The translations under genes and the position numbers were made by a program. Positions 4,451 through 22,126 of a DNA stretch of 22,126 bases are shown in pieces. Position 1 is the stretch's first letter; every line of letters begins with the position of its first letter. The stretch covers positions 1 to 22,126 of the forward strand of contig CALFRW010000102.1 in assembly GCA_937919135.1 (NCBI GenBank), written 5' to 3'. Origin of the DNA: an uncultured Haloplasmataceae bacterium (GTDB lineage: Bacteria; Bacillota_I; Bacilli_A; Haloplasmatales; Haloplasmataceae). The notes under the pieces are model-generated. The model was given only the letters and a program-made list of their open reading frames with translations. It made no database searches and had not been told where the DNA came from.

Positions 4451-6228
4451 TGATTACCCTTCTTAAAGATGATGTTTTAAGGATAGTAGCTTTACTATTA
4501 ATTTTTGCGATTATATTAGTTGTGATAGCTTTATTTCAAGAAATTAATTTACGAAGAAGAAAGAAAATCAATTATAATAATTTTGAGAAATTTCAGAAGT
4601 ATTATCAGTTAAAAATTAATTACCTATATTTAATTGGAGTATTCGGAGATATTATCTTTTCTACATACTTTGCCTTTATTACTGTAAGAAACCCTAACTA
4701 TGCGCTTTATATGATTACACTTGTGGTGCTAAATCTGTTGCTTTTTCCGCTTATCTATTTACAAATAAGTAGAAATAAATATAATAAAGACTTAACTATT
4801 TTTAGTCAGTATTACTATATCATTCGAAAAAGTTATGAAGCAAGAACGGTATTAATGCATCATAAACAGGATCTTGAAGCTATTTATCAAACCTTATTAG
4901 AGGAAAGTCTGCGGGTTAATGATAAGTTTAGTAGTTTTATGAAAAGTTATCAGGGGATTCCTGATTTATTAGCTACACTTAAGCCAATTAGTGAAATAAT
5001 TAAACAGCATCAAGAAAAGCTTGACGCTTTTGATTACGGGCTGATTAATAAGTTTAATCAAGAATTAAATAGCTTTATCACCACTAACCAACATAATAAG
5101 TGGGCATTAAACGTTTTTAATTATCAAAAGAATTATCATGAAAAAGATATCCAGGCTTCGATTACTAAAGCACAAAATAAATTAATCTATGAACATGCGT
5201 TAACTGAATTAAAACAAGATAATCTTAAATCGGTTAGTGCGTTAATGGATTTAATCTTATTTTTAGAAAGTTTGAAGGTAAATTTACGGGAAGAATTAAT
5301 TATTGAGGTATTAAATTACATTTACCAGCACTATGAAAATAGAACGAAGATTTTAAGTTTATTAATCAGTAAGGGCTTAATATCGGTAAATATTTTAGAA
5401 ACACATGTTAACGTAAAAGATTGGTCTTGGGTTTATGAGATCCCGTTAGATAAGATAATTGAAGTTCAGGATGCATATAGAGTATTTCTATCACTGATTC
5501 GTTCTAATGCCTACAACAGTGCTTACAATGTTTTAACAACATGTGATAGTAAGTATAGCGCAAGTATCAGAAAGGCAGCGAAGTTAGTCACTGAAGCAAA
5601 TGAAACGCATAAATTATTTCTTATTTTTCATGAAGTATATGCCTCTAATGACTGCTTTAATATAAAAGCTCTGAAGTATGAAAATATCGCTGTTGTTTTA
5701 AATTTTTTCTTTAAAGATTATTATCCTAAAGATAAAGATGCCAATAAAATAGCTGAAATATTAAGAAATAACAGTTATGTAAACAATCGTGAATTTATTA
5801 ATAATGTCTATTTACGTATTCAATCAGGGTATAGTAAATTCCTTAATTATACAATGAATACCTTAATTAATTATCGTAATACAAACTGTGATTACATTAA
5901 TTATCAGAAGTTGATTAACCAATATGCTCAGTATCGTAAAAATTTAAATATTAAAGAGCTGAAAGTACTTGATGTAATATTAAATGTTTTAATTTTACTT
6001 AATGAAACTAATCCGAAATATATTGGTGAGGTATTTCAAAATTTTGCCCAAATCGATGTTTTATATCGGGGAAAGATTTCCGTAGAAGCATTATATTATG
6101 ATAATCGGTTAAAAATTGGCAACCAACTTTTAAGAAATCTCTTGAAATATGAGATAAATACGGTCAAAAAGGTGGTAAATCAAATTGAGAATGAACGATT
6201 AGTTTTCGATAAGATCGTCAATTTATAG
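4450..6228 (+). CDS. Hypothetical membrane protein (592 aa) with three N-terminal TM helices and a large alpha-helical domain. It is translationally coupled to the upstream surface-protein gene.
   Basis: The ATG overlaps the upstream TAA by 1 nt (TAATG). The TM segments are VLRIVALLLIFAIILVVIALF, LYLIGVFGDIIFSTYFAFITV and LYMITLVVLNLLLFPLIYL. The rest is K/N/E/L-rich and helical, and I recognise no catalytic motif. Confidence 0.8.
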   Translation: MITLLKDDVLRIVALLLIFAIILVVIALFQEINLRRRKKINYNNFEKFQKYYQLKINYLYLIGVFGDIIFSTYFAFITVRNPNYALYMITLVVLNLLLFPLIYLQISRNKYNKDLTIFSQYYYIIRKSYEARTVLMHHKQDLEAIYQTLLEESLRVNDKFSSFMKSYQGIPDLLATLKPISEIIKQHQEKLDAFDYGLINKFNQELNSFITTNQHNKWALNVFNYQKNYHEKDIQASITKAQNKLIYEHALTELKQDNLKSVSALMDLILFLESLKVNLREELIIEVLNYIYQHYENRTKILSLLISKGLISVNILETHVNVKDWSWVYEIPLDKIIEVQDAYRVFLSLIRSNAYNSAYNVLTTCDSKYSASIRKAAKLVTEANETHKLFLIFHEVYASNDCFNIKALKYENIAVVLNFFFKDYYPKDKDANKIAEILRNNSYVNNREFINNVYLRIQSGYSKFLNYTMNTLINYRNTNCDYINYQKLINQYAQYRKNLNIKELKVLDVILNVLILLNETNPKYIGEVFQNFAQIDVLYRGKISVEALYYDNRLKIGNQLLRNLLKYEINTVKKVVNQIENERLVFDKIVNL

Positions 6229-6247
6229 TAAATAGGATGTGAGACTT

Positions 6248-6874
6248 ATGTCACAAAATGCGCGTTTATTAATTAATATCATTATTGATAATAGTTCATC
6301 GATGAAAGGTGAAAAACTCCAAAAATTAAAGTCTGCACTGGGCTTATTTCATGATTCTATTTTAGCAAGCAAATTAGATTTTCTCTATTCAGTAATTGGC
6401 TATAAAGGATTTCAAGCTGCGATATTTAAATCGTATGATGATGAGGTTCTTAACCTAGATGATATTTATGAAGGTGGGTTAGCTTTATTAGGTAAGGCAG
6501 TGCTTTTAGGTGTAAAAACATTAGAAGAAAAATTAATTACCTTAAGAACCCAGGGCTGCAAATTATATAAACCTTGGTTTGTCATTTTAAGTGATGGCCA
6601 ATGTTATGGGGAGCTTGATAGTCAATTAGAAGCATTTAAAGATTTGTATAAAAAGCAAAGCATCACCTATTTTCCGTTTTTATTGTCAAATAATCCGCTT
6701 GATGAAAAGTTAACTGAATTTCAAAGCTTGAAACGGCCTTTAGTAATTGCTAATCTGCAGTATGATAAACTATTTAAATGGTTATTTGAAACGCTTAAAT
6801 TAAGGATTACGACGCAAGTTGAACAAACGATTAGATTAACAAGTACAGCATTTGATGGGTGGGTTATAAAATGA
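6248..6874 (+). CDS. von Willebrand factor type A (vWA) domain protein, TerY-like, cytoplasmic (no signal peptide). The ORF track starts it at 6239 (GTG); ATG 6248 with upstream RBS AGGATGTGAG is the likelier start.
   Basis: The MIDAS motif IIIDNSSSM (DxSxS) is near the N-terminus. Downstream hydrophobic strands and VILSDGQ (the T/D MIDAS region) are typical of a vWA Rossmann-like fold. Confidence 0.8.
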   Translation: MSQNARLLINIIIDNSSSMKGEKLQKLKSALGLFHDSILASKLDFLYSVIGYKGFQAAIFKSYDDEVLNLDDIYEGGLALLGKAVLLGVKTLEEKLITLRTQGCKLYKPWFVILSDGQCYGELDSQLEAFKDLYKKQSITYFPFLLSNNPLDEKLTEFQSLKRPLVIANLQYDKLFKWLFETLKLRITTQVEQTIRLTSTAFDGWVIK

Positions 6875-7824
6875 TATTAGAAAATTGGAAACAAACGGCA
6901 ATAGAGGTAACAGGAAAAGACCATTTAGCACTAAATGAAGTCTGTCAAGACCGTACTTATTATGTAAAAAATAATGGTGTCCATGTGATTGCTTTGGCAG
7001 ATGGTGCAGGCTCGCGAAAAAGGTCTGAAATTGGGGCCATGATTGTTACGAAAAAAATTAGTGAATTTCTAGTCAAAAATTTTTATAATGTCTACATGGG
7101 TTTAGAAAAAAGCGGAAAAACGGAAGCGGTATATCTTGAGGAGCTTAAAACATTTAAGAAATTCATCATTAATATCCTCGTAAATGAGTTAAATAATTAT
7201 CCTAATGTTCCGCTTAATGAATTATCCTCAACACTTTTGTTTTTTGCGATTAAAGATGATAAATATATCGTGGGTCATATCGGCGATGGTGTGATTGGTG
7301 GTGTTTTTGAAGAAAGTGAAACTCTTACGATTGAAACATTATCAGAACCCCATAATGGTGGGGCACCTAATATAACTTTTTTTGTTACTGATTCTGATGC
7401 TTATGAAAACTTAAGAATTGGTTCTGGTGAAGCGATTAATTTACGCGGTGTTATCCTAATGAGTGATGGTCCAGCTGAAGTGATGTATCATAAGGATTAT
7501 GGGCTTGACGAAAATGTGATTAAAATCTTTGAAAACTTTGAGCGTATCGTACCAGATAAGTATGAACAGATTCTGAAAACCTTTTTGGTTGAAAGAATAG
7601 CTAAATTTAGTAGTGACGATTTAAGTCTAAATATATTATTCTTAGAAAGTATATTAGCTAATAATCAGGAACAATATGATTTAAATTTATTAAAAACCAT
7701 AAAGGCCAAAACTCAGATTAGTTTTAAATCGCAATACTGTGTTCACATAGACTCTTCCATAAAACCCAATACTCGTGATTTTTTAACCCTTGATGAGCTT
7801 AGGAGATATCTAAAATGGCAATAG
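6871..7824 (+). CDS. PP2C-family Ser/Thr protein phosphatase-like protein. An alternative GTG start at 6859 overlaps the upstream gene by 16 nt.
   Basis: Metal-coordinating Asp/Gly motifs are spaced as in PP2C/SpoIIE-like phosphatases: VIALADGAGS, GHIGDGVIGG and ILMSDGPAEV. The gene sits next to a vWA gene and a kinase gene, the TerY-P triad context. Confidence 0.7.
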   Translation: MILENWKQTAIEVTGKDHLALNEVCQDRTYYVKNNGVHVIALADGAGSRKRSEIGAMIVTKKISEFLVKNFYNVYMGLEKSGKTEAVYLEELKTFKKFIINILVNELNNYPNVPLNELSSTLLFFAIKDDKYIVGHIGDGVIGGVFEESETLTIETLSEPHNGGAPNITFFVTDSDAYENLRIGSGEAINLRGVILMSDGPAEVMYHKDYGLDENVIKIFENFERIVPDKYEQILKTFLVERIAKFSSDDLSLNILFLESILANNQEQYDLNLLKTIKAKTQISFKSQYCVHIDSSIKPNTRDFLTLDELRRYLKWQ

Positions 7825-9140
7825 TCTTTATTGAAGAAAGTTGTTTTCTCGCCCCGGGGTTTATTAACCTTTTAGAAAATCTTGTTAATGACGGAAGTTT
7901 AATCTATGTGGAGCAGCAAATTGAACAGACAATCACAAATTTAAAAGCACAAAATCGGTTTAAGGAAGCCTATATAATTGAAGGTTATCTTGATATACTG
8001 GAATCACTTGCAGTCCTAAAAAAAATAACGACAAACTCTTACTTTGATTTTAGTCATTTTGATCGTGTAATTAAACAAAACCAAAATCTGAGTGTGTTAA
8101 TTCTAACCCAGAAAGAAAGTGTTTATAAAAATGTTTTGGATTTAAAAAACAAATATAAGCATGTTGCGATTGCCCGTTTTTCGCAAAATCTTATCTATTG
8201 GGATGATAATTCAAATGACGCTCTTGATGCCTTTTATCTAGATAATGATCAATATATCAATAAAGTTGATATCGAAAACTTGGATTATGTTTATTCACCT
8301 AAATATGGTCATCTCTGCTTAGATAAAAGAAAAACTTTTAAAGGTGGAGAAGGAATATTATATCCTACTTATAATAATCAACTTTGTAAATTGTATTTTA
8401 AAGATCATCAAACATATGTGAATTTTAAAAAGCTAAATGCAATGTTAGAAATTGATATTCATAATCCGTTTATTAATTGGCCGAAAGATATTCTCTTTTA
8501 TAAAAATGATTTTGTTGGTTATTTAATGGATGAAGTCAAAGCTGCAGAAAGTCTTGATGTCTTACGAATAAATGCTTTTAAAGGCTATAATATTTTTGAA
8601 AGGTATCTAATCAGTTATAATCTCTTATTAAATATTGATTACTTACATAAAAGAAATATTATTGTTGGTGATTTAAAGTTAGATAATATCCTAATTAAAT
8701 CACCCGAAGAAGTGTATTTAGTTGATTGTGGTAGTTGTCAAATCGGTGATTTTGCTTGTAATGTTTGTCACCCAGAATATACAAAAAGAGTCTATACTGC
8801 TGATGAATTAAAACAGAAGCTTAGAACAGTTGAAGATGAATATTATCCGATTAATAAAATTATTTTTGAAATTTTAATTGGTAAAAACCCCAATTATAAC
8901 CGTTATTCGGGAGAAGTTGATATTGAAAATAAAAATAATTTTTATTTTCCGCTGGATTTAAGTGAAATTAAAGAATATACAGGCGAATTATATATGTGGC
9001 GTGGTTTAAGTGAAAGAATGCGGACATTCTTCTACTATTATTTTAAAGAAAATAAAATTACTTATCTATCAGAATGGATAAATGAATTAGAATTATATAT
9101 TAAAAATGCTCAGGCAATGAAAATAAAAGGAGAGAGATAA
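7815..9140 (+). CDS. Ser/Thr protein kinase-like protein (441 aa). It has an N-terminal ~170-aa domain of unknown function and a C-terminal Hanks-type kinase domain.
   Basis: The Gly-rich loop and beta3 Lys region is FKGGEGILYPTYNNQLCKLYFK. The catalytic-loop equivalent is IIVGDLKLDNILI, with D, K and N conserved as in HRDLKxxN. The DFG equivalent is VDCGSCQIGDF, and a PE-containing segment reads CHPEYT. The start overlaps the PP2C stop by 10 nt. Confidence 0.75.
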   Translation: MAIVFIEESCFLAPGFINLLENLVNDGSLIYVEQQIEQTITNLKAQNRFKEAYIIEGYLDILESLAVLKKITTNSYFDFSHFDRVIKQNQNLSVLILTQKESVYKNVLDLKNKYKHVAIARFSQNLIYWDDNSNDALDAFYLDNDQYINKVDIENLDYVYSPKYGHLCLDKRKTFKGGEGILYPTYNNQLCKLYFKDHQTYVNFKKLNAMLEIDIHNPFINWPKDILFYKNDFVGYLMDEVKAAESLDVLRINAFKGYNIFERYLISYNLLLNIDYLHKRNIIVGDLKLDNILIKSPEEVYLVDCGSCQIGDFACNVCHPEYTKRVYTADELKQKLRTVEDEYYPINKIIFEILIGKNPNYNRYSGEVDIENKNNFYFPLDLSEIKEYTGELYMWRGLSERMRTFFYYYFKENKITYLSEWINELELYIKNAQAMKIKGER

Positions 9141-9141
9141 A

Positions 9142-9834
9142 ATGACTTATAATGACTTTAATTTTGATTTGTTTGGTGATTATAAACAACCAAATATTGA
9201 TAGTTCTTTAAAACTACCTTTATGTTTAGTATTAGATAATAGTGGCTCAATGTCGATTAGAACAAAATCGACAAGAGGCTCGATTGTCAAAATTGATGAA
9301 TTAAACTCCAATGTAGAAAAATTAATTAATTATATCAAAAATGATCCGAAAGCTAGTAAAATTTGTGATTTATGTATTATTACTTTTGGAGGTAGAGTTA
9401 ACCTTGTGACCGATTATAACTTAGTTGAAAATATTAGCCCCTTTAGATTAGTGGCAGGGGGTAATACCCCTTTAGGTGAAGCGGTTGGGCTTGCAATCGA
9501 CTTACTTAATAAAAGAAGAGATCATTATATTGAAAATGGGATTGAGCATTATAAACCAATTATGTTAATCATGAGTGATGGTGAGCCAACAGATAGTTAT
9601 ATCGAAAGTGCCAGAAGATGTAGTGAAAAGGTAAGTAGAAAAGAATTAAAAGTTTATCCTGTCGGGATTGGAACTGATTTTCGCGAAGATATTTTACAAG
9701 AATTTTCTCCATTAATAAATCCAAAACGAATTACTGATATGGCTGGCTTTGTAAGATTATTTGAGTTATTAAGTCGAAGTACAAGTAATCCAACGGATGA
9801 TTCAATTGATAAATGGTTTAATGAAGATATCTAG
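9142..9834 (+). CDS. vWA domain protein, TerY-like (second copy)
   Basis: RBS AAAGGAGAGAG precedes the ATG. MIDAS motif LCLVLDNSGSMS (DxSxS) is present, along with NTPLGEAV (the conserved Thr loop) and IMLIMSDGEPTD. Confidence 0.85.
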   Translation: MTYNDFNFDLFGDYKQPNIDSSLKLPLCLVLDNSGSMSIRTKSTRGSIVKIDELNSNVEKLINYIKNDPKASKICDLCIITFGGRVNLVTDYNLVENISPFRLVAGGNTPLGEAVGLAIDLLNKRRDHYIENGIEHYKPIMLIMSDGEPTDSYIESARRCSEKVSRKELKVYPVGIGTDFREDILQEFSPLINPKRITDMAGFVRLFELLSRSTSNPTDDSIDKWFNEDI

Positions 9835-9863: not shown

Positions 9864-9892
9864 TTGACATTTGTTTTATTTTAAGAGATAAT
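9864..9892 (+). promoter_or_regulatory. Sigma-70-like promoter for operon 2: -35 TTGACA (9864-9869), 17-nt spacer, -10 GATAAT (9887-9892)
   Basis: Consensus -35 with a good -10 at canonical spacing. It lies between the terminator and the AGGAGG RBS (9915-9920) of the GTG start at 9926. Confidence 0.5.
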
Positions 9893-9925
9893 AGCAATAA
9901 GAAATGTGTTGTATAGGAGGATAAA

Positions 9926-10645
9926 GTGAAAGAAATTATCAAGTTTTCAGGTAATAAAGATGATTTAGTTTGGATTTATCCCAAGGCTAATATCAGTAAA
10001 GATGCAGAAGTGATTGTTGATAAAGATTATCAAGCAATTTTAGTGCGAAATGGTAAAATTATTCCTTATTTTCCCGGTGTAAATAAGGCGTTTAGTGAGA
10101 AAGTTTCTTTGTTTAATAAATATATCAATGATTGTACAATTTATTTTTTTAATAAGTCGAAAGATGTTAAATTTCATAAATGGGGTACTAAATATCCAAT
10201 TAGATATTTTGATAAACATTATCAAACTGAGCTTTCAATGCGGGCTCATGGCAAGTATAAAGTATATTTGGATAATCCAAGATTATTTATGAATAGTTTT
10301 AAACTTGATAGTAATATTCGCATTGAAAATGATATTAAAGCAATGGTTATTATAAAAATTACCGAAAAATTAGCGAAATTATTAAACTTAGGTAAATATA
10401 ACGCTTTAAGTATTAACGCTTATCTTAATGAGATTTCAACTATGATTCAAGATGAACTTAATCAGGATTTCGAAGAATGGGGATTTAGTCTTTTTAATTT
10501 AAGTTTTACAGAATTATCGCCGCTTGAAGTAAATGAAATCAAAAATGAATGTCCAAATTGTCAAGCTAAAGTTAATCCACAAATGAAGTTTTGTAGTAAT
10601 TGTGGGATGAGTTTAGTAGAAGTTGGTGATGTAGATGTTGTTTAA
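9926..10645 (+). CDS. SPFH/Band-7-like (COG4260 'virion core protein-like') N-terminal domain protein with a C-terminal zinc ribbon; GTG start
   Basis: The N-terminus FSGNKDDLVWIYPKANISKDAEVIVDKDYQAILVRNGKIIPYFPG resembles the characteristic start of SPFH-plus-Zn-ribbon proteins, which I recall as ...D.LVW.FP......I..GS.LIV...Q.AVFV.NG.I. The C-terminus CPNCQAKVNPQMKFCSNCGMSL is a CxxC...CxxC zinc ribbon. At 239 aa it is shorter than a full SPFH protein, so it may be a truncated or minimal version. Confidence 0.55.
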   Translation: MKEIIKFSGNKDDLVWIYPKANISKDAEVIVDKDYQAILVRNGKIIPYFPGVNKAFSEKVSLFNKYINDCTIYFFNKSKDVKFHKWGTKYPIRYFDKHYQTELSMRAHGKYKVYLDNPRLFMNSFKLDSNIRIENDIKAMVIIKITEKLAKLLNLGKYNALSINAYLNEISTMIQDELNQDFEEWGFSLFNLSFTELSPLEVNEIKNECPNCQAKVNPQMKFCSNCGMSLVEVGDVDVV

Positions 10646-10919
10646 TAAGTATAATGATAAACAAAAATTAATTTATAAAACTCTAAGCGAAATTGAATTA
10701 GCAATTAATGAAACGGAAATAAGAAAAAGGGTTAGTGCGGTAATTGATAAATTATATACCATTAAACCAAAAGCTAAAAATGATGGACAGTTAAAACAAC
10801 TTAATCATTATGTCAAAGAATTAAAAAGCGAATTAGTTAACCCAATTGAGTCAATTATTAATAATTATCTTGATAAAATTGATAGTATTTTAAATCAAAT
10901 TAAATATGAGGGTGAGTGA
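10635..10919 (+). CDS. Small (94 aa) predicted alpha-helical/coiled-coil protein of unknown function
   Basis: It overlaps the upstream gene by 11 nt and runs into the next start. It is charged and heptad-like throughout, with no recognisable motif. Confidence 0.6.
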   Translation: MLFNKYNDKQKLIYKTLSEIELAINETEIRKRVSAVIDKLYTIKPKAKNDGQLKQLNHYVKELKSELVNPIESIINNYLDKIDSILNQIKYEGE

Positions 10920-10921
10920 TA

Positions 10922-11494
10922 ATGATGTTTGGTAAAAAGCGAAAACAAAAAGCAAATGAAGAAAAAAACTTTCGTTTACATAATGAGATTTTACGAAAAT
11001 CACATGAACTAGAAAAATTATTTGCAAAATTAGCTGAAACAAAAGCACAAGGGAAAGCTGAAAAAAATGAAAATATGAAACAATTTATCGCTAATGAATA
11101 TATTCAAATCGAAAATAAAATTAAAATGAGTACAATTCAGTTAAAAGATTTACAAAAAACTTATATTTTAAATCTAAATATTATGAGTAAGGAAGAATTA
11201 TTAAAGACTTATAGTGTGATCGATAAGTATAAGATTGCCAGTAATAATGACTTAATAAGTATTGTGGAAAAAATAACCAATATTCAAAAAGATAAAATTG
11301 TTGAAGAAAAAGAACGTGAAGATATTGAAGAAGTATTTGTAGAAAGTATTGATAGTTACTCAGAAGAATTGGATAATCCAAGAGCAAGTGAACTAATAAA
11401 TGCTTGGGCTAAGGAAGTTACTCAAGAGGAATTTGAAAAAGAAAGTAACCCTGAAAATTTAGCGGTTGTAGCTGAAAGCAAAGGAGAGATGTAA
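10922..11494 (+). CDS. ESCRT-III superfamily (Snf7/CHMP-like) protein, paralogue 1. The ORF track starts it at 10916 (GTG); ATG 10922 or 10925, giving MMFGKK, is the likelier start.
   Basis: It has a Snf7-type N-terminus (MFGKKRKQK) and a basic helix-1 (ILRKSHELEKLFAKLAETKAQGKAEKNENMKQFIANEY) with the Snf7-like KKG.NK..A pattern. It then has a long amphipathic helical hairpin and an acidic C-terminal half (EEKEREDIEEVFVESIDSYSEELD). The composition is the basic N-half and acidic C-half typical of ESCRT-III. Confidence 0.7.
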   Translation: MMFGKKRKQKANEEKNFRLHNEILRKSHELEKLFAKLAETKAQGKAEKNENMKQFIANEYIQIENKIKMSTIQLKDLQKTYILNLNIMSKEELLKTYSVIDKYKIASNNDLISIVEKITNIQKDKIVEEKEREDIEEVFVESIDSYSEELDNPRASELINAWAKEVTQEEFEKESNPENLAVVAESKGEM

Positions 11495-12070
11495 ATGTTT
11501 AAATCAAGAGCAGAAAAAGAGCTGGAACGTAAATTAAAAGTAAAACGTACCTTATCAGGTATGAATAAATTTATCTCGCAAATTGAAATGAAAAAGAAAA
11601 AATTAATTGAACAGGCTAGCTTAGCTAAATTAAAAGGAATTGATTCTCAATATAATCTAGCTGTTCAAGGTTTAAAAATTGCTTTAGCGCAACAAAAGCG
11701 TGTTGAAACAATGTTACTTAATTTTGAGATTACGACACAGTTAAAAGATATCTCACAAATGACAAAAGGTTTTTTTGAATCGATGAGTATCTTATCTAAT
11801 GAATTATCAGGTGGTACAAAACAAAAAGATTTTGTGAAAGTGCAACAACAATTTGAAAAAGCAATGATGAAATCACAAATGCAAACTGAAAGATTAGAAG
11901 CATTTTTAGAGTCAACTGAGTCCTTATTTGAAAACTTAAGTGTTGATTCTAGTTCTGTAGATGACCAAGAAATTGAAAAATTAATTGAAAATCAAGCAAG
12001 TAATATTGATAATGATTTAGATCTAGAAATTGAAGAGAAACTTAAGAGTTTAGACACTAAATCATTATAG
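11495..12070 (+). CDS. ESCRT-III superfamily (Vps2/CHMP2-like) protein, paralogue 2, with a C-terminal MIM1-like motif
   Basis: The core KGIDSQYNLAVQGLKIALAQQKRVETMLLNFEITTQLKDISQMTKGFFESMSILSNEL aligns residue-pattern-wise with the CHMP2/Vps2 helices alpha2-alpha4 (..AKQGQMDAVRIMAKDLVRTRRYV...MAQAMKGVTKAMGTMNRQL). The C-terminus DLDLEIEEKLKSLDTKSL matches the MIM1 consensus D-x-x-L-x-x-(R/K)-L-x-x-L, as in CHMP2 ...DADLEERLKNLRR. RBS AAAGGAGAG precedes the ATG, which abuts the upstream stop. Confidence 0.8.
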   Translation: MFKSRAEKELERKLKVKRTLSGMNKFISQIEMKKKKLIEQASLAKLKGIDSQYNLAVQGLKIALAQQKRVETMLLNFEITTQLKDISQMTKGFFESMSILSNELSGGTKQKDFVKVQQQFEKAMMKSQMQTERLEAFLESTESLFENLSVDSSSVDDQEIEKLIENQASNIDNDLDLEIEEKLKSLDTKSL

Positions 12071-12085
12071 AAAAGGAGTGGGATT

Positions 12086-13201
12086 ATGGAGAATCAACAA
12101 TTTTTACTTGATGCATTTAATACGTATTATAATAATGGTATGACCGCAAAACAAAAAGCCAATATTCCCCTCGCCAAAAAAAATTTTAAGAAGGCTTGTG
12201 AAGTATTGTTAAAACTAGCAAAAGTGTCATCAGGTGAATTAAAACGATCTCGTTTAGATAAAGCCACTCGTTTAATGGAGTACATAGATTCTTTAAAAGA
12301 ACCAGATAAATCACGAATAAGCACAAATCAAAATAAAAAAGCAGATAGTACCGAAACCTCTTGGGAAGCAGTTAGCATTCCAAATATTTGTTTTGATGAT
12401 ATCGCTGGTTTAGATGATGTTAAAGAAGCAGTTAGAATAAGAATTATCCTACCTCGAAAATACCCTGAAATATATAATAAGTACAAGAAGAAGGCTGGCG
12501 GAGGCGTATTAATGTATGGTCTACCTGGTACTGGTAAAACCATGATTGCTAAAGCGATTGCTAGAGAAATTCAAGCAAAGTTTTTTTCGGTAAAAAGCAG
12601 TGATATTGTAAGTAAATGGTTTGGTGAGGCAGAAAAGAATGTTAGAAACTTATTCGAAACAGCAAGAAAGGAAAGTAATGCAGTTATCTTTTTTGATGAA
12701 TTTGAAGCATTAGGTGCTAAACGAAGCAGTAATTCAAGTGTTATGTCAAGACTAATTCCAGAATTATTGGCACAAATTCAAGGTTTTAATGAAACAGATG
12801 CCAATATTATGATCCTTGCTGCTACTAACCGACCGTGGGATTTAGATAGTGCCTTTTTAAGACCGGGACGTTTTGATGAAAAACTCTATGTCCCTTTACC
12901 TGATAATGATGCTAGGAAGTTTATTATTACCAAAGCTTTAGAAGGATTACCACTTGATAATAATATTGAAATAGAAAAATTAGTTGCATATACTGATGGA
13001 TTTAATGCTGCTGATGTCGTAGAGTTTTGTGAGCGTTTAAAAGATGGACCAATTAGACGTACGATTGAAAATGGTGGAAAAAATATTGAAAATATCAATC
13101 TTGATGATGTCAATTTTGTCCGGAATAATGTTAAAAGTTCAGTTAATCCTCAGGATATAACTGCACTTCAGAAGTGGAAAACGGAATTCGCTAAAAATTA
13201 G
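12086..13201 (+). CDS. Vps4-like AAA+ ATPase of the meiotic clade (Vps4/katanin/spastin), with an N-terminal MIT-like domain
   Basis: RBS AAAAGGAGTGGG precedes the ATG. The N-terminal three-helix region FLLDAFNTYYNNG...KACEVLLKLAK...KRSRLDKATRLMEYIDSLKE parallels the Vps4 MIT helix ...[24 protein letters not shown]. The ATPase carries Walker A GLPGTGKT and Walker B IFFDEFEAL, sensor-1 ATNRPWDLD and Arg-finger/SRH LRPGRFDEKLYVPLPD. The C-terminal helix VKSSVNPQDITALQKWKTEF matches the Vps4 family C-terminal helix (LKSTRPSVS.EDLEKYEEWTKEF). Confidence 0.9.
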   Translation: MENQQFLLDAFNTYYNNGMTAKQKANIPLAKKNFKKACEVLLKLAKVSSGELKRSRLDKATRLMEYIDSLKEPDKSRISTNQNKKADSTETSWEAVSIPNICFDDIAGLDDVKEAVRIRIILPRKYPEIYNKYKKKAGGGVLMYGLPGTGKTMIAKAIAREIQAKFFSVKSSDIVSKWFGEAEKNVRNLFETARKESNAVIFFDEFEALGAKRSSNSSVMSRLIPELLAQIQGFNETDANIMILAATNRPWDLDSAFLRPGRFDEKLYVPLPDNDARKFIITKALEGLPLDNNIEIEKLVAYTDGFNAADVVEFCERLKDGPIRRTIENGGKNIENINLDDVNFVRNNVKSSVNPQDITALQKWKTEFAKN

Positions 13202-13210
13202 AGGTGGATC

Positions 13211-14104
13211 ATGAAAGAAATAGTAAAGAAGTGTCCTTATTGTGGTAATATCCTAGATGAAAAAAGTGTTTTATATAAAGGATATTATGTTTGTTCAAGT
13301 TGTGCAAATACCATTAATGACAGTAAAAATGTTGAGTTAATTAGGAGATTCAGTAATTATATTCGAAATTTAGAATTTCAAAGAGCAGATAGTTTACGAA
13401 AAGAAATGCTTGATGATGCTGATTTTGATGTTAATGAGTTACAACTGTTTACTTTTTATTCAGCAATTTTGCATCTGTTTTTAACACGTGATCCCAGTAA
13501 TATTATTAAGTTTTTAAATGATTCTACCGCAACTGATATTGGTGTTGTAATTGAAGTGTTGAATTTTTTAACTAGTATTTCTGTATATGTAGAAAAATTA
13601 GGTAAATATATTCATGATTATGTTGATATGCAAGAAAAGTACTTGTCACAGCTTAATAATTATGAGTTTAATGTTGCTTATATTGAGTTAAAGAAAAAAT
13701 ATTTTAAATCAATTTTAAATAAATCCAGTTTTATTATGCAAAGTTATAAACAAGGAAAGATGTCTTTACAAGAAATATTGGAATTAATTCATAAAGAAGA
13801 TCCTGGAAATATTGCCGCACTATATGCGATTTTTGATGATGTTGCGACTAATTCCCACCCGGTTGAATTAATTAATAGTTATCTTAAAACATGCGATTAT
13901 GCTTTAGAACTCTACTATGAGAAATCAAAACGCAAAATGAGTGATAATTATAAAGTTTATTATAAGAAATCGCTCGCATTACGGAGAAAATATAATCTGC
14001 ACGCTAATAAAAATTACTTGTGGCAGAAAAAACTCACTAATAATTTATTCTGGGGAGTTATAATAATTATTATGATCATAATTGGGATAATGTTATTGAA
14101 ATAG
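13211..14104 (+). CDS. Hypothetical protein with an N-terminal zinc ribbon, a helical middle domain and a C-terminal TM anchor
   Basis: RBS AGAGGTGGA precedes the ATG. The zinc ribbon is CPYCGN...(16 aa)...CSSCAN. The C-terminal hydrophobic segment is LFWGVIIIIMIIIGIMLL, followed by K. Confidence 0.75.
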   Translation: MKEIVKKCPYCGNILDEKSVLYKGYYVCSSCANTINDSKNVELIRRFSNYIRNLEFQRADSLRKEMLDDADFDVNELQLFTFYSAILHLFLTRDPSNIIKFLNDSTATDIGVVIEVLNFLTSISVYVEKLGKYIHDYVDMQEKYLSQLNNYEFNVAYIELKKKYFKSILNKSSFIMQSYKQGKMSLQEILELIHKEDPGNIAALYAIFDDVATNSHPVELINSYLKTCDYALELYYEKSKRKMSDNYKVYYKKSLALRRKYNLHANKNYLWQKKLTNNLFWGVIIIIMIIIGIMLLK

Positions 14105-14114
14105 GATGGATATT

Positions 14115-15389
14115 ATGACTAACGAACCTTTATTTAACAAAGGGACAATTTTAAATAACACTATAAAGATTATCGACTATATTGGTTCAGGTGGTCAAGG
14201 TGAAGTGTATCTAGTTAAGTATTATGATAAGCAATATGCTTTAAAATGGTATTATGCTCATATCGTAAATCAAAACCTTAAAAGAGTTATTATAAATTTA
14301 ATATCTAAAGGAGCCCCAAATCAGCATTTTCTTTGGCCGATTAAACTTGTTGAAGAAAATAATCAATTTGGTTATTTAATGGAACTTCGACCGCCAAATT
14401 ACCGGAGTTTAAATGAATGGGTAAAATTAGAGTTTGATATGAATTTATCAACAATAGCCTTAGCGTGTTTTAAATTAACCAATGCTTTTAATAAGCTTCA
14501 TGCTATCGGATTAAGTTATAAAGATATTTCACTAGACAATATCTTTGTCGACCCCAAACGTGGTGATATTTTAATTTGCGATAATGATAATATTACCGCA
14601 AATGGTATTAATGTAGGTGGCCTCTTGGGTACCCCTAAATTTATGGCACCAGAGCTAGTTATGGGGTCAACAATTCCTAATACGGAATCGGATCAGTTTT
14701 CACTCGCTGTTTTATTATTTTATATTTTATTAGTTTCGCATCCGTTTGAGGGAAGGTTAGAAGCAAATATTACGTGCTTTAATGATTTAAGCGCTAAAAT
14801 GCTTTATGGAACGGATGCGGTATTTATTTATGATGAAGCGAATCCTTCTAACCGACCGGTTTTAGGAATTCACAATAATGCGATTAACTTATGGCCAATA
14901 TATCCTAAATACATTAGGGATTTGTTTCATAAAACATTTACCATCGGTGTAAGGAATCCTTTAAAAAGGACAAGAGAAAGTGAGTGGCGAACTGCTTTCT
15001 TAAAGTTATATAATTCACTGTTTAAATGTTCTAATTGTGGGCAAGAAAATATTTATGAGCTAAAGAAATATCAAAGCCAGGGCAAGTTAGACCCTTGCAT
15101 CTATTGTAAACAAGACTTCCAAATTCCACCTCGGATTGGAATTAAAGATAATATTATTGTTTTAAGTGAGGAAAAAGGTTTATTTGTCTGTCATATAAAT
15201 CCTAATGAACCAGCTAATTTAACTTTAGTTGGTAGGATTAATAAAATAAGTTCAGACTATATAATAACTAATGTTTCGAAACTAAATTGGAAAATTAACG
15301 GTCAAAAAATTTTGCCACAAATGTCAAAAACTTTAATAAACGGTGATATAATTGATTTTGGTTTAACAACTGGAGAAATCAGATTTTAG
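14115..15389 (+). CDS. Hanks-type Ser/Thr protein kinase with C-terminal zinc-ribbon and FHA-like modules. The ORF track starts it at 14106; ATG 14115 has the better RBS, AGGATGGA.
   Basis: The Gly-rich loop GSGGQGEVYLV and beta3 YALKW are present. The catalytic loop is YKDISLDNIFV and the Mg-binding loop is ICDNDNI. The activation-segment end GTPKFMAPELV is a canonical APE motif. The zinc ribbon is CSNCGQ...(17 aa)...CIYCKQ. The C-terminal ~85 aa (...VGRINKISSDYIITN...NWKINGQKI....LINGDIIDFG) resemble the FHA GR...D..I......S..H..I...VNG..I....L..GD.I.FG core. Confidence 0.8.
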   Translation: MTNEPLFNKGTILNNTIKIIDYIGSGGQGEVYLVKYYDKQYALKWYYAHIVNQNLKRVIINLISKGAPNQHFLWPIKLVEENNQFGYLMELRPPNYRSLNEWVKLEFDMNLSTIALACFKLTNAFNKLHAIGLSYKDISLDNIFVDPKRGDILICDNDNITANGINVGGLLGTPKFMAPELVMGSTIPNTESDQFSLAVLLFYILLVSHPFEGRLEANITCFNDLSAKMLYGTDAVFIYDEANPSNRPVLGIHNNAINLWPIYPKYIRDLFHKTFTIGVRNPLKRTRESEWRTAFLKLYNSLFKCSNCGQENIYELKKYQSQGKLDPCIYCKQDFQIPPRIGIKDNIIVLSEEKGLFVCHINPNEPANLTLVGRINKISSDYIITNVSKLNWKINGQKILPQMSKTLINGDIIDFGLTTGEIRF

Positions 15390-15406
15390 ATGAAAGAGGA
15401 GAAGAA

Positions 15407-16099
15407 ATGGGATTAAGAAAGTTAGGAGCTGAAAAAATTTCAGCACGTCAGTTGGATTTTATCTTTGTTTTAGACGTATCTGGTTCGATGCATGGGGAAA
15501 AGATTGCTGCTCTTAATTATGCGATTAAAGAAGCAATACCAGCAATGCAAGAAGCAGCACATAAAAATGTAAATGCGGAAATTATGGTGCGGGTACTAAC
15601 ATTTTCAGATGATGTAAATTGGTTTATAGAACGTGAACCAATAAAAGACTTTCTATGGCATGATATTAAACCGCAAGGACTGTCAAATTTAGGTAGAGCA
15701 TTTACTGAGCTTGCTAGAATATTAGATGAATCATTAATGCCTGATCGAGGTCTTCCTCCAGTAATTGTCTTAATCACTGATGGTATGCCGACGGATGATT
15801 ATAAAGAAGGTTTAGCTATGCTTTTGGCAACAAAATGGGGACGTGCTGCAGTTAGGCTTGCAATCGCCTTAGAAAACGATGTTGAAAAAGCTGTATTAGA
15901 TGATTTTATCGATAATAACAGAATAAAACCAATTAGGGTTGAAAATGCTAATCAATTAGTGAAATATATGAGATTTGTCTCGACAGTAGTATTAAATACA
16001 GTTTCATCGGTTAAAGATAATGAGAAGTTGATTTTTGATTTTGATTTCGACCTTCCTGAAGATGATGAAACTACTACTGATGTTTATGATGTATTTTAG
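15407..16099 (+). CDS. vWA domain protein, TerY-like (third copy)
   Basis: RBS AAAGAGGAGAAG precedes the ATG. MIDAS motif FIFVLDVSGSMHG (DxSxS) is present, with LSNLGRAF (Thr/Ser loop) and VIVLITDGMPTDD. An acidic C-terminal tail reads DFDFDLPEDDETTTDVYDVF. Confidence 0.9.
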   Translation: MGLRKLGAEKISARQLDFIFVLDVSGSMHGEKIAALNYAIKEAIPAMQEAAHKNVNAEIMVRVLTFSDDVNWFIEREPIKDFLWHDIKPQGLSNLGRAFTELARILDESLMPDRGLPPVIVLITDGMPTDDYKEGLAMLLATKWGRAAVRLAIALENDVEKAVLDDFIDNNRIKPIRVENANQLVKYMRFVSTVVLNTVSSVKDNEKLIFDFDFDLPEDDETTTDVYDVF

Positions 16100-16128: not shown

Positions 16129-17586
16129 ATGGAAACTATAAGGATAATTGATATTTTAAAACAAGTTGATATTGATTTATTGTTAAAGCAAAAATATTTA
16201 AAGGCTGTACTAGCTGACCTTTTGTATGAATATGAAAATGAACGAAAAATATTAAATATGGTTAATAATAGTACTAATGTGGTAAAAAGATTAGCAGATA
16301 GTAATAATAAACTAATTGAATTAGAAAATCTTAATCAGGAATTATTAAGCTTTGGTTTAAATGAAGCAGCAATTAAATGGGCATTAGATATTTGGGCAGG
16401 AGTACTAAATATTAACCAAATAGATCGTAATATTCGTCATGATGCAAACTTATCATTAAGTTTAGGTGGGGCATTTACCATCGCCTTATTTAATAATGAT
16501 TATGTCTATGTATGGGGAAATAATCGTTGGGGTCAACTAGGAGTAGGTAACAAAATTGATTACATTAAACCTCAAGATATTACCGCTTCATTTAATCTTG
16601 GATTAAATGAAAAGGTTAACGCAGTAGCTGCCTCCTTTCGTTCATCATATTTGTTAACTGATCAAGGTAGATTATTTGCTTGGGGTAATAATGAGTATGG
16701 GCAACTTGGTGATGAAACAATGATTAATAGTAATCTACCAATGGATATTACAAATCGGTTTAAGTTAGCTACTTCAGAAAAAATTATTAAAATAAGCGCT
16801 GGCGGTTTCCATGCACTTTTATTAACTAATCAAAATCGAATTTTTACTTGGGGTAACAACCAATATGGCCAGTTAGGTGATGGAACTTATATAAATAAAA
16901 GTAAACCGATAAATATTACCCCTAATTGTTTATTAAAAAATGGCGAATTTATTCAAGAGCTTTATGCCGGATTAGGACATTCGCTGTTTATCACAACAGT
17001 AGGGAGAATCTTTACTTGGGGTAATAATAAATATGGCCAGTTAGGTGTAGAGAATCTTATTAAAGAAAATGTTCCCCTCGATATAACGCAAAATATCCCG
17101 TTCATTAACGGTGAAAGTATTGGAGATTGTTCAGTGGGCTCTCTACATTCATTAATTGCTACCAGTCAAGGGAGATTATATACTTTTGGTAATAATGAAG
17201 ATGGTCAATTAGGTGATAATACACTTAATAACAGTAATATTCCTGTTGAGATATCGCGATACTTTAATCCACAAGAAAGAATTATTAAAGTAAGCGCAGG
17301 AAGGAATTTTTCAATCGCTTTAACAAGTTTAGGTCATGTTTATACTTGGGGTAATAATAAAAAAGGACAATTAGGCATTAATGATTTTATCACTAATAGT
17401 AAAGGTCCAATAGATATCACAAATAAACTAGTCCAAAATGAAAATGAAACGATTGTTGATATTTTTACCGGTTCAAGTTCTAATCATGCATATGCGGTTA
17501 GTTCACAAAATAATATCTATGCTTGGGGAAATAATGAATATGGGCAACTTGGTGAAAGTAGTAGTTTAGATATATATGTAAAATAA
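16129..17586 (+). CDS. RCC1-repeat (regulator of chromosome condensation-like) beta-propeller protein with an N-terminal ~110-aa helical domain
   Basis: RBS TAGGAGTT precedes the ATG. The RCC1 signature WGNNxYGQLG recurs seven or more times: WGNNRWGQLGVG, WGNNEYGQLGDE, WGNNQYGQLGDG, WGNNKYGQLGVE, FGNNEDGQLGDN, WGNNKKGQLGIN and WGNNEYGQLGES. These repeats are spaced about 50-55 aa apart. Confidence 0.9.
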   Translation: METIRIIDILKQVDIDLLLKQKYLKAVLADLLYEYENERKILNMVNNSTNVVKRLADSNNKLIELENLNQELLSFGLNEAAIKWALDIWAGVLNINQIDRNIRHDANLSLSLGGAFTIALFNNDYVYVWGNNRWGQLGVGNKIDYIKPQDITASFNLGLNEKVNAVAASFRSSYLLTDQGRLFAWGNNEYGQLGDETMINSNLPMDITNRFKLATSEKIIKISAGGFHALLLTNQNRIFTWGNNQYGQLGDGTYINKSKPINITPNCLLKNGEFIQELYAGLGHSLFITTVGRIFTWGNNKYGQLGVENLIKENVPLDITQNIPFINGESIGDCSVGSLHSLIATSQGRLYTFGNNEDGQLGDNTLNNSNIPVEISRYFNPQERIIKVSAGRNFSIALTSLGHVYTWGNNKKGQLGINDFITNSKGPIDITNKLVQNENETIVDIFTGSSSNHAYAVSSQNNIYAWGNNEYGQLGESSSLDIYVK

Positions 17587-21928: not shown

Positions 21929-21974
21929 TATTATTGTAATTAAATATTAAATCAATATAGTTACATAGAATATG

Positions 21975-22126
21975 TATTAAAAGGGAATACGGTTAGAATC
22001 CGTAACAGCCCCCGCTACTGTATTTAGCTAATAGCTTTTTATTAAATCACTGAGTTTACTTGGGAAGACAAAAAGCTGTGTTTGATGCTATAAGTCAGGA
22101 GACCTGCTTTATTGTTTTAAAAAGAA
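21975..22126 (+). promoter_or_regulatory. Cobalamin (AdoCbl) riboswitch, 5' portion, running off the window end
   Basis: AAAGGGAATACGGTTAGAATCCGTAACAGCCCCCGCTACTGTA matches the conserved 5' core of cobalamin riboswitches, which I recall as GGGAA..GGTG.AA.TCC...CAG.CCCCGC.ACTGTA. The segment AAGTCAGGAGACCTGC at 22092-22107 matches the B12-box consensus rAGYCMGgAgaCCkGCc. The expression platform and the regulated gene lie beyond the window. Confidence 0.75.

Follow-up and report, generated by a model that had tools for sequence, protein, structure and literature searches.

We report that two adjacent genes on a contig of an uncultured Haloplasmataceae bacterium (assembly GCA_937919135.1, contig CALFRW010000102.1, positions 1 to 22,126; hereafter the window, meaning this whole stretch of 22,126 nucleotides) are likely to encode a bacterial pair of the ESCRT-III/Vps4 type (ESCRT, after the endosomal sorting complexes that are required for transport), in which a helix at the tail of the first protein would dock on the MIT domain of the second. 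The first gene (11495-12070, + strand) encodes a Snf7-family protein of 191 amino acids (aa) that is ESCRT-III-like and closest to CHMP2/3/1, and the second (12086-13201, + strand) an AAA ATPase; the locus is a probable bacterial Snf7-type ESCRT-III/MIT-AAA module. A preliminary description, made from the letters of this DNA without database searches, had proposed such a pair because the C terminus of a "CHMP2-like" protein resembled the MIT-interacting motif 1 (MIM1) of eukaryotic CHMP1/2. Its interpretation is supported in essentials, with the corrections given below.

The kinship of the 191-aa protein with ESCRT-III emerges from its family. An exhaustive profile search returned 510 cluster representatives at E <= 1e-3, mostly 185-230 aa long. 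We used a broad profile of 100 diverse relatives, including the window protein, and a narrow profile of 28 sequences, and the window protein joins the family through both (E about 1e-77 to 1e-106). Against the PDB, the broad profile has human CHMP2A as its best match (E 5.4e-6), with profile positions 7-149 aligned to CHMP2A residues 4-142, followed by CHMP3, CHMP1A, CHMP1B, Vps24 and CdvB; the CHMPs were reached with this profile only, the narrow one retrieving nothing relevant from the PDB. Scanned singly, 28 of the 100 relatives match Pfam Snf7 (PF03357; best E 1.4e-9), with one of them (P0251) exceeding its gathering score, while any other Pfam family is matched by at most three. The label "CHMP2-like" is thereby borne out, and we conclude from these profile comparisons that the protein is, at the level of its family, a Snf7-type ESCRT-III homologue nearest the CHMP2/3/1 group.

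An AlphaFold2 (AF2) model places helices at residues 5-47, 50-105, 110-146 and 157-190, a layout that would fit ESCRT-III helices alpha1 to alpha5/6, the ESCRT-III fold being a long alpha1-alpha2 hairpin with alpha3 to alpha5 after it; this fold evidence is consistent with ESCRT-III and goes no further. A putative alpha5-like motif, DDQEIEKLIENQ (aa 157-168; 11963-11998, + strand), stands 5' of the terminal helix, and its consensus D-EI--LI is conserved in the 28- and 100-sequence alignments and seen in most of the tails listed. The N terminus, MFKSRAEKE, like MMFGKKRK in the protein encoded upstream, is reminiscent of the basic and hydrophobic N termini of ESCRT-III proteins. Two other identities were considered and rejected. 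A PspA/Vipp1 protein is not indicated, as PspA_IM30 (PF04012) is absent both from the matches of the window protein and from the 25 commonest families of its relatives. A link to type VII secretion (WXG100/EssC-like), brought up by ESAT-6-like matches and by fusions to FtsK, was ruled out by the length of about 190 aa and by Snf7 being the sole recurrent Pfam family.

The open reading frame ends in NIDNDLDLEIEEKLKSLDTKSL, followed by a stop codon (12068-12070). Its 18 terminal residues, DLDLEIEEKLKSLDTKSL (aa 174-191; 12014-12067, + strand), form a C-terminal helix that we regard as a MIM1-like candidate MIT-interacting motif (MIM). The motif had been located at 12017-12070, and while the tail is real and lies in this reading frame, its start had been set one codon late. 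The spacing that had been read there, D-x-x-L/I-x-x-K-L-x-x-L, is found at D176, I179, K182, L183 and L186. Numbered from I179 as position 0, these residues stand at -3, 0, +3, +4 and +7, with D187 at +8; the hydrophobic residues I179, L183 and L186 at 0/+4/+7 lie 6-13 residues from the C-terminal end, and D176 supplies the acidic residue that MIM1 carries at -3. Since the separate alpha5-like motif stands upstream, the terminal helix is an additional element.

The C-terminal helix is conserved across homologues, an alignment that had been set beforehand as the test of the idea. I179 does not vary among 28 homologues (35-85% identity), where the pattern is retained, and all 83 genome pairs examined keep the terminal helix. 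In 100 diverse non-fused representatives, which also supply the frequencies that follow, hydrophobic residues at 0/+4/+7 occur inside the last 32 residues in 82. Position -3 is Asp in 46% (Asp or Glu in 54%), position 0 is Ile or Leu in 87%, +1 is acidic (D/E) in 68%, +3 is Lys or Arg in 54% and Glu in 19%, +4 is Leu or Ile in 93%, +7 is Leu or Ile in 79%, +8 is Lys or Arg in 41%, and +11 is Leu or Ile in 66%. A strict MIM1 pattern, [DE]..[ILVM]..[KR][ILVM]..[ILVM], is present in 25% of the C-terminal tails, whereas shuffled tails have it in 1.1% and 1799 internal windows in 0%. The pattern of the preliminary description, written as D-x-x-[LI]-x-x-[KR]-L-x-x-L, has two occurrences among the 17 proteins of the window (7005 aa in all), one in this tail and one in a vWA protein (6239-6874); when the 191-aa protein was shuffled 20,000 times, 0.4% of the shuffles had it anywhere and 0.025% inside the last 25 residues. 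The tail motif is thus conserved and position-specific.

The ATPase is encoded by the very next gene, after a gap of 15 nucleotides, and not two genes away as had been stated. Three parts can be told apart in it: a predicted MIT-like three-helix domain (aa 1-74; 12086-12307, + strand), a low-complexity linker (aa 75-95; 12308-12370, + strand) and an AAA+ module with a C-terminal helix (12371-13201, + strand). Across 30 ATPase homologues the N-terminal domain of about 75 aa, the AAA motifs and the C-terminal segment are conserved, while the linker varies in length and sequence. The expectation that the N terminus forms a helical bundle agrees with a confident AF2 model of aa 1-74 (mean predicted local distance difference test score, pLDDT, 95.1; predicted TM-score 0.83), with three helices at residues 2-23, 27-46 and 50-69. 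MIT domains, archaeal Vps4 first, lead two independent fold searches: the top matches are MIT domains of Vps4/CdvC, the first three in Foldseek are archaeal Vps4 MIT domains, and the closest structural relative is the MIT domain of Sulfolobus CdvC (2w2u). A PDB profile search with the N-terminal domain gave sub-threshold MIT matches only (2mpk, E 0.15; 2w2u, E 0.27). The domain carries a net charge of +5, and conserved basic residues lie on its helices 2 and 3 (K31, K/R32, K46, R56, R/K59 and K/R61). As modelled, the N terminus of the ATPase is an MIT-type three-helix bundle. Of the two outcomes that the preliminary description had named as counting against it, a tail helix that varies among homologues and an ATPase N terminus that forms no helical bundle, neither came about.

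The AAA+ motifs are intact (Walker A GLPGTGKT, Walker B FFDEFE, pore loop KWFG, arginine fingers RPGRFD), with strong support from Pfam AAA (E 3.1e-41) and a weak match to Vps4_C (E 0.0023). The NCBIfam CdvC model is the top full-length match, aligning residues 1-368 with model positions 1-368 of 370 at 219 bits. With its N-terminal MIT-like domain, flexible linker, single AAA cassette and C-terminal helix, the protein has the layout of Vps4/CdvC, and from its sequence it appears to be an MIT-AAA ATPase, Vps4-like in architecture. The short lid region between 'PIRRTIENGG' and 'INLDDV' suggests that the beta-domain insertion which binds Vta1/LIP5 is missing. Three forms of protein occur among the relatives of the ATPase, single-AAA (370-390 aa), extended (about 480-520 aa) and double-AAA (about 680-715 aa), and the N-terminal domain is common to all. 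Examples with two AAA cassettes or a C-terminal extension of about 150 aa lie at L007:8596-10641, L008:8585-10723, L009:8585-10732 and L005:10615-12183 (L numbers denote individual loci); the double-AAA relatives have a Cdc48-like two-ring layout in which an MIT domain replaces the usual N-terminal domain.

The two genes travel together. Hidden Markov models (HMMs) of the Snf7-like family and of the N-terminal domain were run over 86 loci: the window, 80 genome loci and five contigs located by looking up exact proteins. In 84 of these the Snf7-like gene has, downstream on its own strand, a gene that encodes the MIT-like domain; in the other two the contig, 2.9 or 3.4 kb long, stops before that position is reached. 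The gap between the two genes has a median of about 18 nucleotides, with 1-4 kb of other genes between them in a minority of loci. Among genomes, the 191-aa protein has its closest relatives (79-81% identity) in Inordinaticella fortuita and Haloplasmataceae metagenome-assembled genomes (MAGs), and farther ones in Anaeroplasmatales, Christensenellaceae and many Clostridia MAGs. There are no relatives in IMG/VR viral contigs or PLSDB plasmids, and the gene is therefore not evidently one of mobile elements.

Two loci, L006 and L090, hold a minimal module without the SPFH gene and the small helical gene that accompany the pair elsewhere, and in both the Snf7-like gene adjacent to the ATPase keeps the tail helix. 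This pattern associates the helix more closely with the ATPase than with the remaining cassette members. In L090 a second, non-adjacent Snf7-like paralogue lacks the helix. In these genomes (L006:8487-11640, L090:8001-10290) the module is made up of three genes, two of them Snf7-like and the third encoding the MIT-AAA ATPase; the first Snf7-like gene is fused to FtsK in L006, and the second has the tail helix. It lies between der/plsY and spoIVA in a spore-former-like synteny. Fusion proteins carry the Snf7-like domain as well, at their N terminus, ahead of an FtsK/SpoIIIE ATPase or of a RuvB-like AAA domain followed by NERD/TnsA-like nucleases (P0203, P0208, P0210, P0218, L006:8487-10004, P0215, P0232, P0278 and P0281), which couples an ESCRT-III-like domain to DNA-pumping or nuclease modules; many of these fusions retain a shortened tail motif at the junction.

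The terminal helix could instead be an intrinsic ESCRT-III element, serving autoinhibition, subunit contact or membrane binding, with the ATPase recognizing its substrate by other means. C-terminal helices of ESCRT-III proteins do serve autoinhibition and packing as well (general knowledge; PMC7619361), and the shortened motif persists in the fusions even though it is no longer C-terminal there. We consider this explanation unlikely: a separate alpha5-like motif is present upstream already, the helix sits at the extreme C terminus past a variable acidic linker in the manner of a recruitment motif, the paralogue adjacent to the ATPase is the only one to retain it in L090, and at every testable locus it co-occurs with an N-terminal domain known solely for binding MIMs. 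Charge complementarity between the MIT domain (+5) and the last 40 residues of the tail (-8) also supports docking of the helix on the ATPase.

A number of observations weigh against the proposed pair. Searched on its own, the 191-aa protein has no significant match in Pfam, NCBIfam or the PDB. Its tail departs from the MIM1 consensus, (D/E)xxLxxRLxxL(K/R), at two charged positions, with Lys (K182) in place of Arg at +3 and Asp (D187) in place of K/R at +8. Position +3 is Lys in the clade of the window and Glu in most Clostridia, where most tails read I-D-K-E-L-E-E-L-K-K-K, and the charged hallmark residues of MIM1 are variable across the family. By its Eisenberg hydrophobic moment the tail is unremarkable, 32% of shuffles equalling or exceeding it, and the AF2 model has low confidence there (pLDDT 48-66). 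Mutual information over 81 unique MIT/tail pairs is dominated by clade structure and by high-entropy linker positions, so that covariation between the two proteins is uninformative. As for the ATPase, Pfam MIT (PF04212) stays below threshold (E 0.027; 15 bits against a cut-off of 30) and is matched weakly by 4 of 28 members of the N-terminal domain family; the 219 bits of the CdvC match compare with an equivalog cut-off of 650, and every curated NCBIfam cut-off is missed. Judged by HMM scores, the AAA core alone is nearest CDC48 (212 bits), then PAN (206), CdvC (188) and FtsH (179). The paralogy of the gene upstream (10922-11494) with the Snf7-like gene is a further caveat, being weakly supported by profile alignment.

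The departures from MIM1 bear on the way in which the helix would dock. The match to the CHMP1/2 consensus that had been claimed holds for the spacing and the acidic -3 residue and fails for the terminal basic residue and the Arg at +3; by its spacing the motif appears MIM1-like without being a strict MIM1. Binding to the MIT domain in a mode other than type 1 (helix 2/3 groove, parallel to helix 3), in the groove between helices 1 and 3 (type 3) or as type 4 or 7, is possible, if doubtful; the pairing would then hold, and the name MIM1 would be mistaken. Helical MIMs have at least four helical binding modes on MIT, and one MIM may use different grooves (PMC9477494); neither the Arg at +3 nor the K/R at +8 is conserved; the fourth hydrophobic position at +11 (66%) makes the helix longer than a minimal MIM1; and the MIT domain of Sulfolobus CdvC was solved with a MIM2 ligand in groove 1/3 (2w2u). 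On the other hand, hydrophobic residues at 0/+4/+7 behind an acidic -3 residue are precisely the MIM1 spacing, and the conserved basic residues cluster on MIT helices 2 and 3. The tail of the window protein reads much like that of CHMP2A, nearly residue by residue, a likeness that we treat as a lead and not as a test. The label "type 1" is provisional, because helical MIMs use several grooves and the CdvC ligand sits in groove 1/3.

The scores of the AAA core bear on a different explanation, in which the ATPase would be a Cdc48/IetA-like conflict unfoldase with a generic TPR-like N-terminal domain, the 191-aa protein would act as a coiled-coil scaffold, and any likeness to ESCRT-III/Vps4 would be convergent or compositional. 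The core is indeed closest to CDC48-D2 and PAN: Cdc48/p97 D2 leads a phmmer search of the PDB, and Cdc48 shares the LRPGRFDE of the second region of homology. IetA is matched in PADLOC (128 bits) and IteA in NCBIfam (112 bits), 8 of 28 N-terminal domains weakly match TPR_2, and TIR, BrxL-like, trypsin and kinase/vWA genes are among the neighbours. The IetA and IteA matches are, however, confined to the generic AAA core, and MIT domains lead both fold searches. Snf7 is the only Pfam family to recur among relatives of the 191-aa protein (28/100), and four CHMPs top the PDB list over the whole core, for which composition alone is insufficient. A defence context would in any case be compatible with a mechanism of the ESCRT-III/Vps4 type, and we hold the conflict-unfoldase explanation to be very unlikely. 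The adjacent protein had been called a Vps4-like ATPase with an MIT domain: the MIT-type fold and the end-to-end alignment with CdvC agree with this, while the core is not demonstrably of the Vps4 clade as far as sequence comparison goes. With the core nearer CDC48/PAN and the cut-offs missed, we do not file the ATPase as a Vps4 orthologue.

We propose the following for the ESCRT-III/Vps4-type pair. The 191-aa protein would probably polymerize on the cytoplasmic face of the membrane, perhaps jointly with the helical protein of about 190 aa encoded upstream and the SPFH/zinc-ribbon protein. Its acidic, flexible tail ends in the conserved helix with I179, L183 and L186 at 0/+4/+7, and this helix may serve as the docking element for the basic three-helix MIT domain of the adjacent ATPase. 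Docking could concentrate the hexameric ATPase on the polymer, and the ATPase may then thread subunits through its KWFG pore, so that the polymer would be remodelled or disassembled. The analysis establishes the family-level homology with Snf7/CHMP2A, the MIT fold, the conservation and C-terminal place of the helix, the almost constant linkage of the genes and the intact ATPase motifs. Docking of the helix on the MIT domain and the groove used, polymerization, membrane association and ATP-driven disassembly we infer by homology with CHMP and CdvB proteins and from what is established for ESCRT-III and Vps4 (PMC9477494, PMC7619361).

The pair belongs to a larger recurring cassette, which comprises genes for an SPFH protein with a zinc ribbon, a protein of about 110 aa, a protein of about 200 aa, the Snf7-like protein and the MIT-AAA ATPase. 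In the window the first core gene (9926-10645, + strand) encodes a YdjI-like protein of the SPFH/Band-7 type that has a zinc ribbon at its C terminus (Pfam Band_7_1, E 2.2e-13, together with zinc-ribbon families), an architecture repeated upstream in loci L005 and L007-L009; a promoter-like site, TTGACA-17-GATAAT (9864-9892), precedes it. Next comes a conserved cassette member of 94 aa (10635-10919, + strand), a helical protein with conserved position across loci and no significant family match in Pfam or NCBIfam. Its equivalents are 107-140 aa long in L005 and L007-L009. In most cassettes its counterpart sits between the SPFH gene and the gene for the protein of about 190 aa, and in L007 it has an N-terminal transmembrane segment.

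The helical protein of about 190 aa (10922-11494, + strand) is a possible divergent ESCRT-III-like paralogue. Its gene family is conserved directly upstream of the Snf7-like gene in most loci, and hhalign aligns the two families collinearly over about 164 columns (probability 39-50%, P 2-3e-4). Near its C terminus this family has the motif 'DDELLAMFE' (ASELINAWAKE in the window, about 11385-11420), which hhalign aligns to the alpha5 'D-EI--LI' of the Snf7-like family. The family has no Pfam or PDB match, and a homologue search with 846 matches contained no annotated relative. The preliminary description had called this protein the other paralogue, had noted that it lacks the motif and had suggested subunit specialization, as in Vps2 versus Snf7. 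The protein indeed has no terminal helix and ends shortly past its alpha5-like motif; its status as a paralogue has the weak backing of the hhalign P value. Specialization of the proposed kind is seen in L090, where the copy next to the ATPase alone has the helix.

The window is a contig of 31% G+C, identical to a MAG contig in GCA_036844665.1. Every gene between 4450 and 17586 is on the + strand, with ends that overlap or abut. A ribosome-binding site, AAGGAG (12073-12078, + strand; read from the sequence), lies in the 15-nucleotide gap between the Snf7-like and ATPase genes, which is consistent with co-transcription, and no terminator-like site was seen on the + strand across 9900-13300. Upstream of the cassette, a 1434-aa protein that has a bacterial surface Ig-like domain at its N terminus (146-4450) and a 592-aa protein without a family match (4450-6228) are encoded on the same strand as the accessory genes for vWA, PP2C phosphatase, Ser/Thr kinase and vWA proteins that follow directly (6239-9834, + strand; Pfam). 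These resemble a TerY-P triad and belong to the variable context, outside the conserved core cassette. The 592-aa protein also carries the strict MIM1 pattern near its own C terminus, at aa 582. Downstream of the ATPase, a zinc-ribbon/transmembrane protein (13211-14104, + strand), a second Ser/Thr kinase and a third vWA protein (14106-16099, + strand) are variable accessory genes as well, and an RCC1-repeat protein follows (16129-17586, + strand), all by Pfam. Components of ESCRT-I/II, Vta1 or ubiquitin were not seen near the locus. A cobalamin riboswitch aptamer (21941-22125, + strand; Rfam RF00174, 115 bits, E 1.2e-28) lies 3' of a MatE gene at the window end.

The flanks of the cassette differ by lineage and include giant TIR_2+TPR proteins, trypsin-like proteases and BrxL/Lon-like ATPases (L007:10691-16358, L008:10982-14842, L091:2875-5784, L005:12205-14780); in the window they are vWA/PP2C/kinase triads and the RCC1 protein. 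Such varying neighbours resemble the wiring of conflict or stress systems, and the kinase/vWA, TIR, protease and BrxL genes suggest, by association, a cellular role in membrane stress or conflict. PADLOC recognized no known defence system, returning generic AAA (IetA, TRIP13) and generic kinase matches only. The minimal module by spoIVA may be linked to membrane fission in sporulation.

Among known systems, the nearest likeness is to eukaryotic CHMP2A/Vps2 and CHMP1, whose MIM1 binds the VPS4 MIT domain in type-1 mode (2jq9, 2v6x). As there, the partner is a Snf7-family protein, with CHMP2A as top PDB match, and it has a C-terminal helix past a flexible acidic linker, with an acidic -3 and hydrophobic 0/+4/+7 residues. 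The present pair differs in its bacterial host, in the replacement of Arg(+3) by Lys (Glu in most relatives) and of K/R(+8) by Asp, in the +11 hydrophobic residue common in the family, in an AAA core that is non-Vps4 by HMM score, and in that binding is predicted. Crenarchaeal CdvB-CdvC (Sulfolobus; 2w2u) is likewise a prokaryotic operon of an ESCRT-III protein and an MIT-AAA ATPase of about 370 aa. CdvB, however, has a proline-rich MIM2 strand, which lies in the groove between helices 1 and 3, and binds CdvA through a winged-helix domain, whereas here the ligand would be a MIM1-like helix, CdvA and the winged helix are missing, and the partners are SPFH/zinc-ribbon and small helical proteins; the ATPase also scores far under the CdvC equivalog cut-off (219 against 650 bits).

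Bacterial systems offer partial likenesses. In Bacillus subtilis, a Firmicute, PspA (YdjF) is coupled to the SPFH/zinc-ribbon protein YdjI (PMC11237479, PMC10936438), which again joins an ESCRT-III-superfamily protein to a Band-7/SPFH protein with a C-terminal zinc ribbon; the family here is Snf7-type and not PspA_IM30, and the ydj operon has no MIT-AAA ATPase. Ravi et al. (2024) list bacterial ATPases, Opitutus ACB74714.1 among them, that are annotated as MIT+Vps4-like AAA, are thought to act near the membrane and are paired with a TPR-6TM protein. The unrelated TPR-6TM gene is described as taking the place of snf7 in their operons, whereas here, at every testable locus, a Snf7-type gene with a MIM-like tail stands upstream of the ATPase. 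ESCRT-III-superfamily proteins are also coupled genetically to AAA+ proteins in PspA-PspF of Proteobacteria and in the PspA/double-AAA dyad of Clostridium sp. BNL1100. PspF is a sigma-54 activator inhibited by PspA and not an MIT-bearing unfoldase (PMC7619361), and in the BNL1100 dyad the ATPase comes first, followed by a classical PspA, a gene order unlike that of the window (Ravi et al. 2024).

Bacteria have been credited with ESCRT-III relatives of the PspA/Vipp1 type only, and a Vps4-like regulator "appears absent in bacteria" (PMC7619361); ESCRT components were held to be identifiable in archaea "but not in bacteria" (Makarova et al. 2024; PMC10936438). We found no description of a Snf7-type/MIT-AAA cassette of Bacillota in the openly searchable literature. 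The broader proposal, which we judge evenly balanced between true and false, is that the chromosomes of Bacillota/Mollicutes-like lineages (Haloplasmatales, Anaeroplasmatales, Christensenellales and other Clostridia) encode an ESCRT-III machine of the Snf7 type with an MIT-AAA disassembly ATPase and a MIM-like tail. Its core would be the SPFH/zinc-ribbon protein, the small helical protein, two ESCRT-III-like proteins and the MIT-AAA ATPase, and the sensor/effector modules to which it is wired would be interchangeable: kinase/PP2C/vWA, TIR-TPR, trypsin, BrxL, and FtsK or RuvB-nuclease fusions. Such interchangeable wiring suggests a membrane-directed stress or immune system, and the minimal module next to spoIVA in spore-former-like genomes suggests a membrane-fission device.

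If this proves true, ESCRT-III remodelling coupled through MIT and MIM would not be limited to archaea and eukaryotes, and the logic by which ESCRT-III recruits Vps4 would extend to bacteria. It would also bear on whether Vps4 had a single origin in a Cdc48-like ATPase, as a Cdc48-D2-like core with an MIT domain and double-AAA versions exist here, and it would offer a small, compact, operon-encoded system for studying how MIT-MIM recruitment drives polymer turnover. The possibility also arises, from the variable TIR, protease and kinase neighbours, that membrane remodelling of the ESCRT-III type takes part in bacterial stress or immune responses. The module would thus be of interest for the evolution of ESCRT and for membrane remodelling in bacteria.

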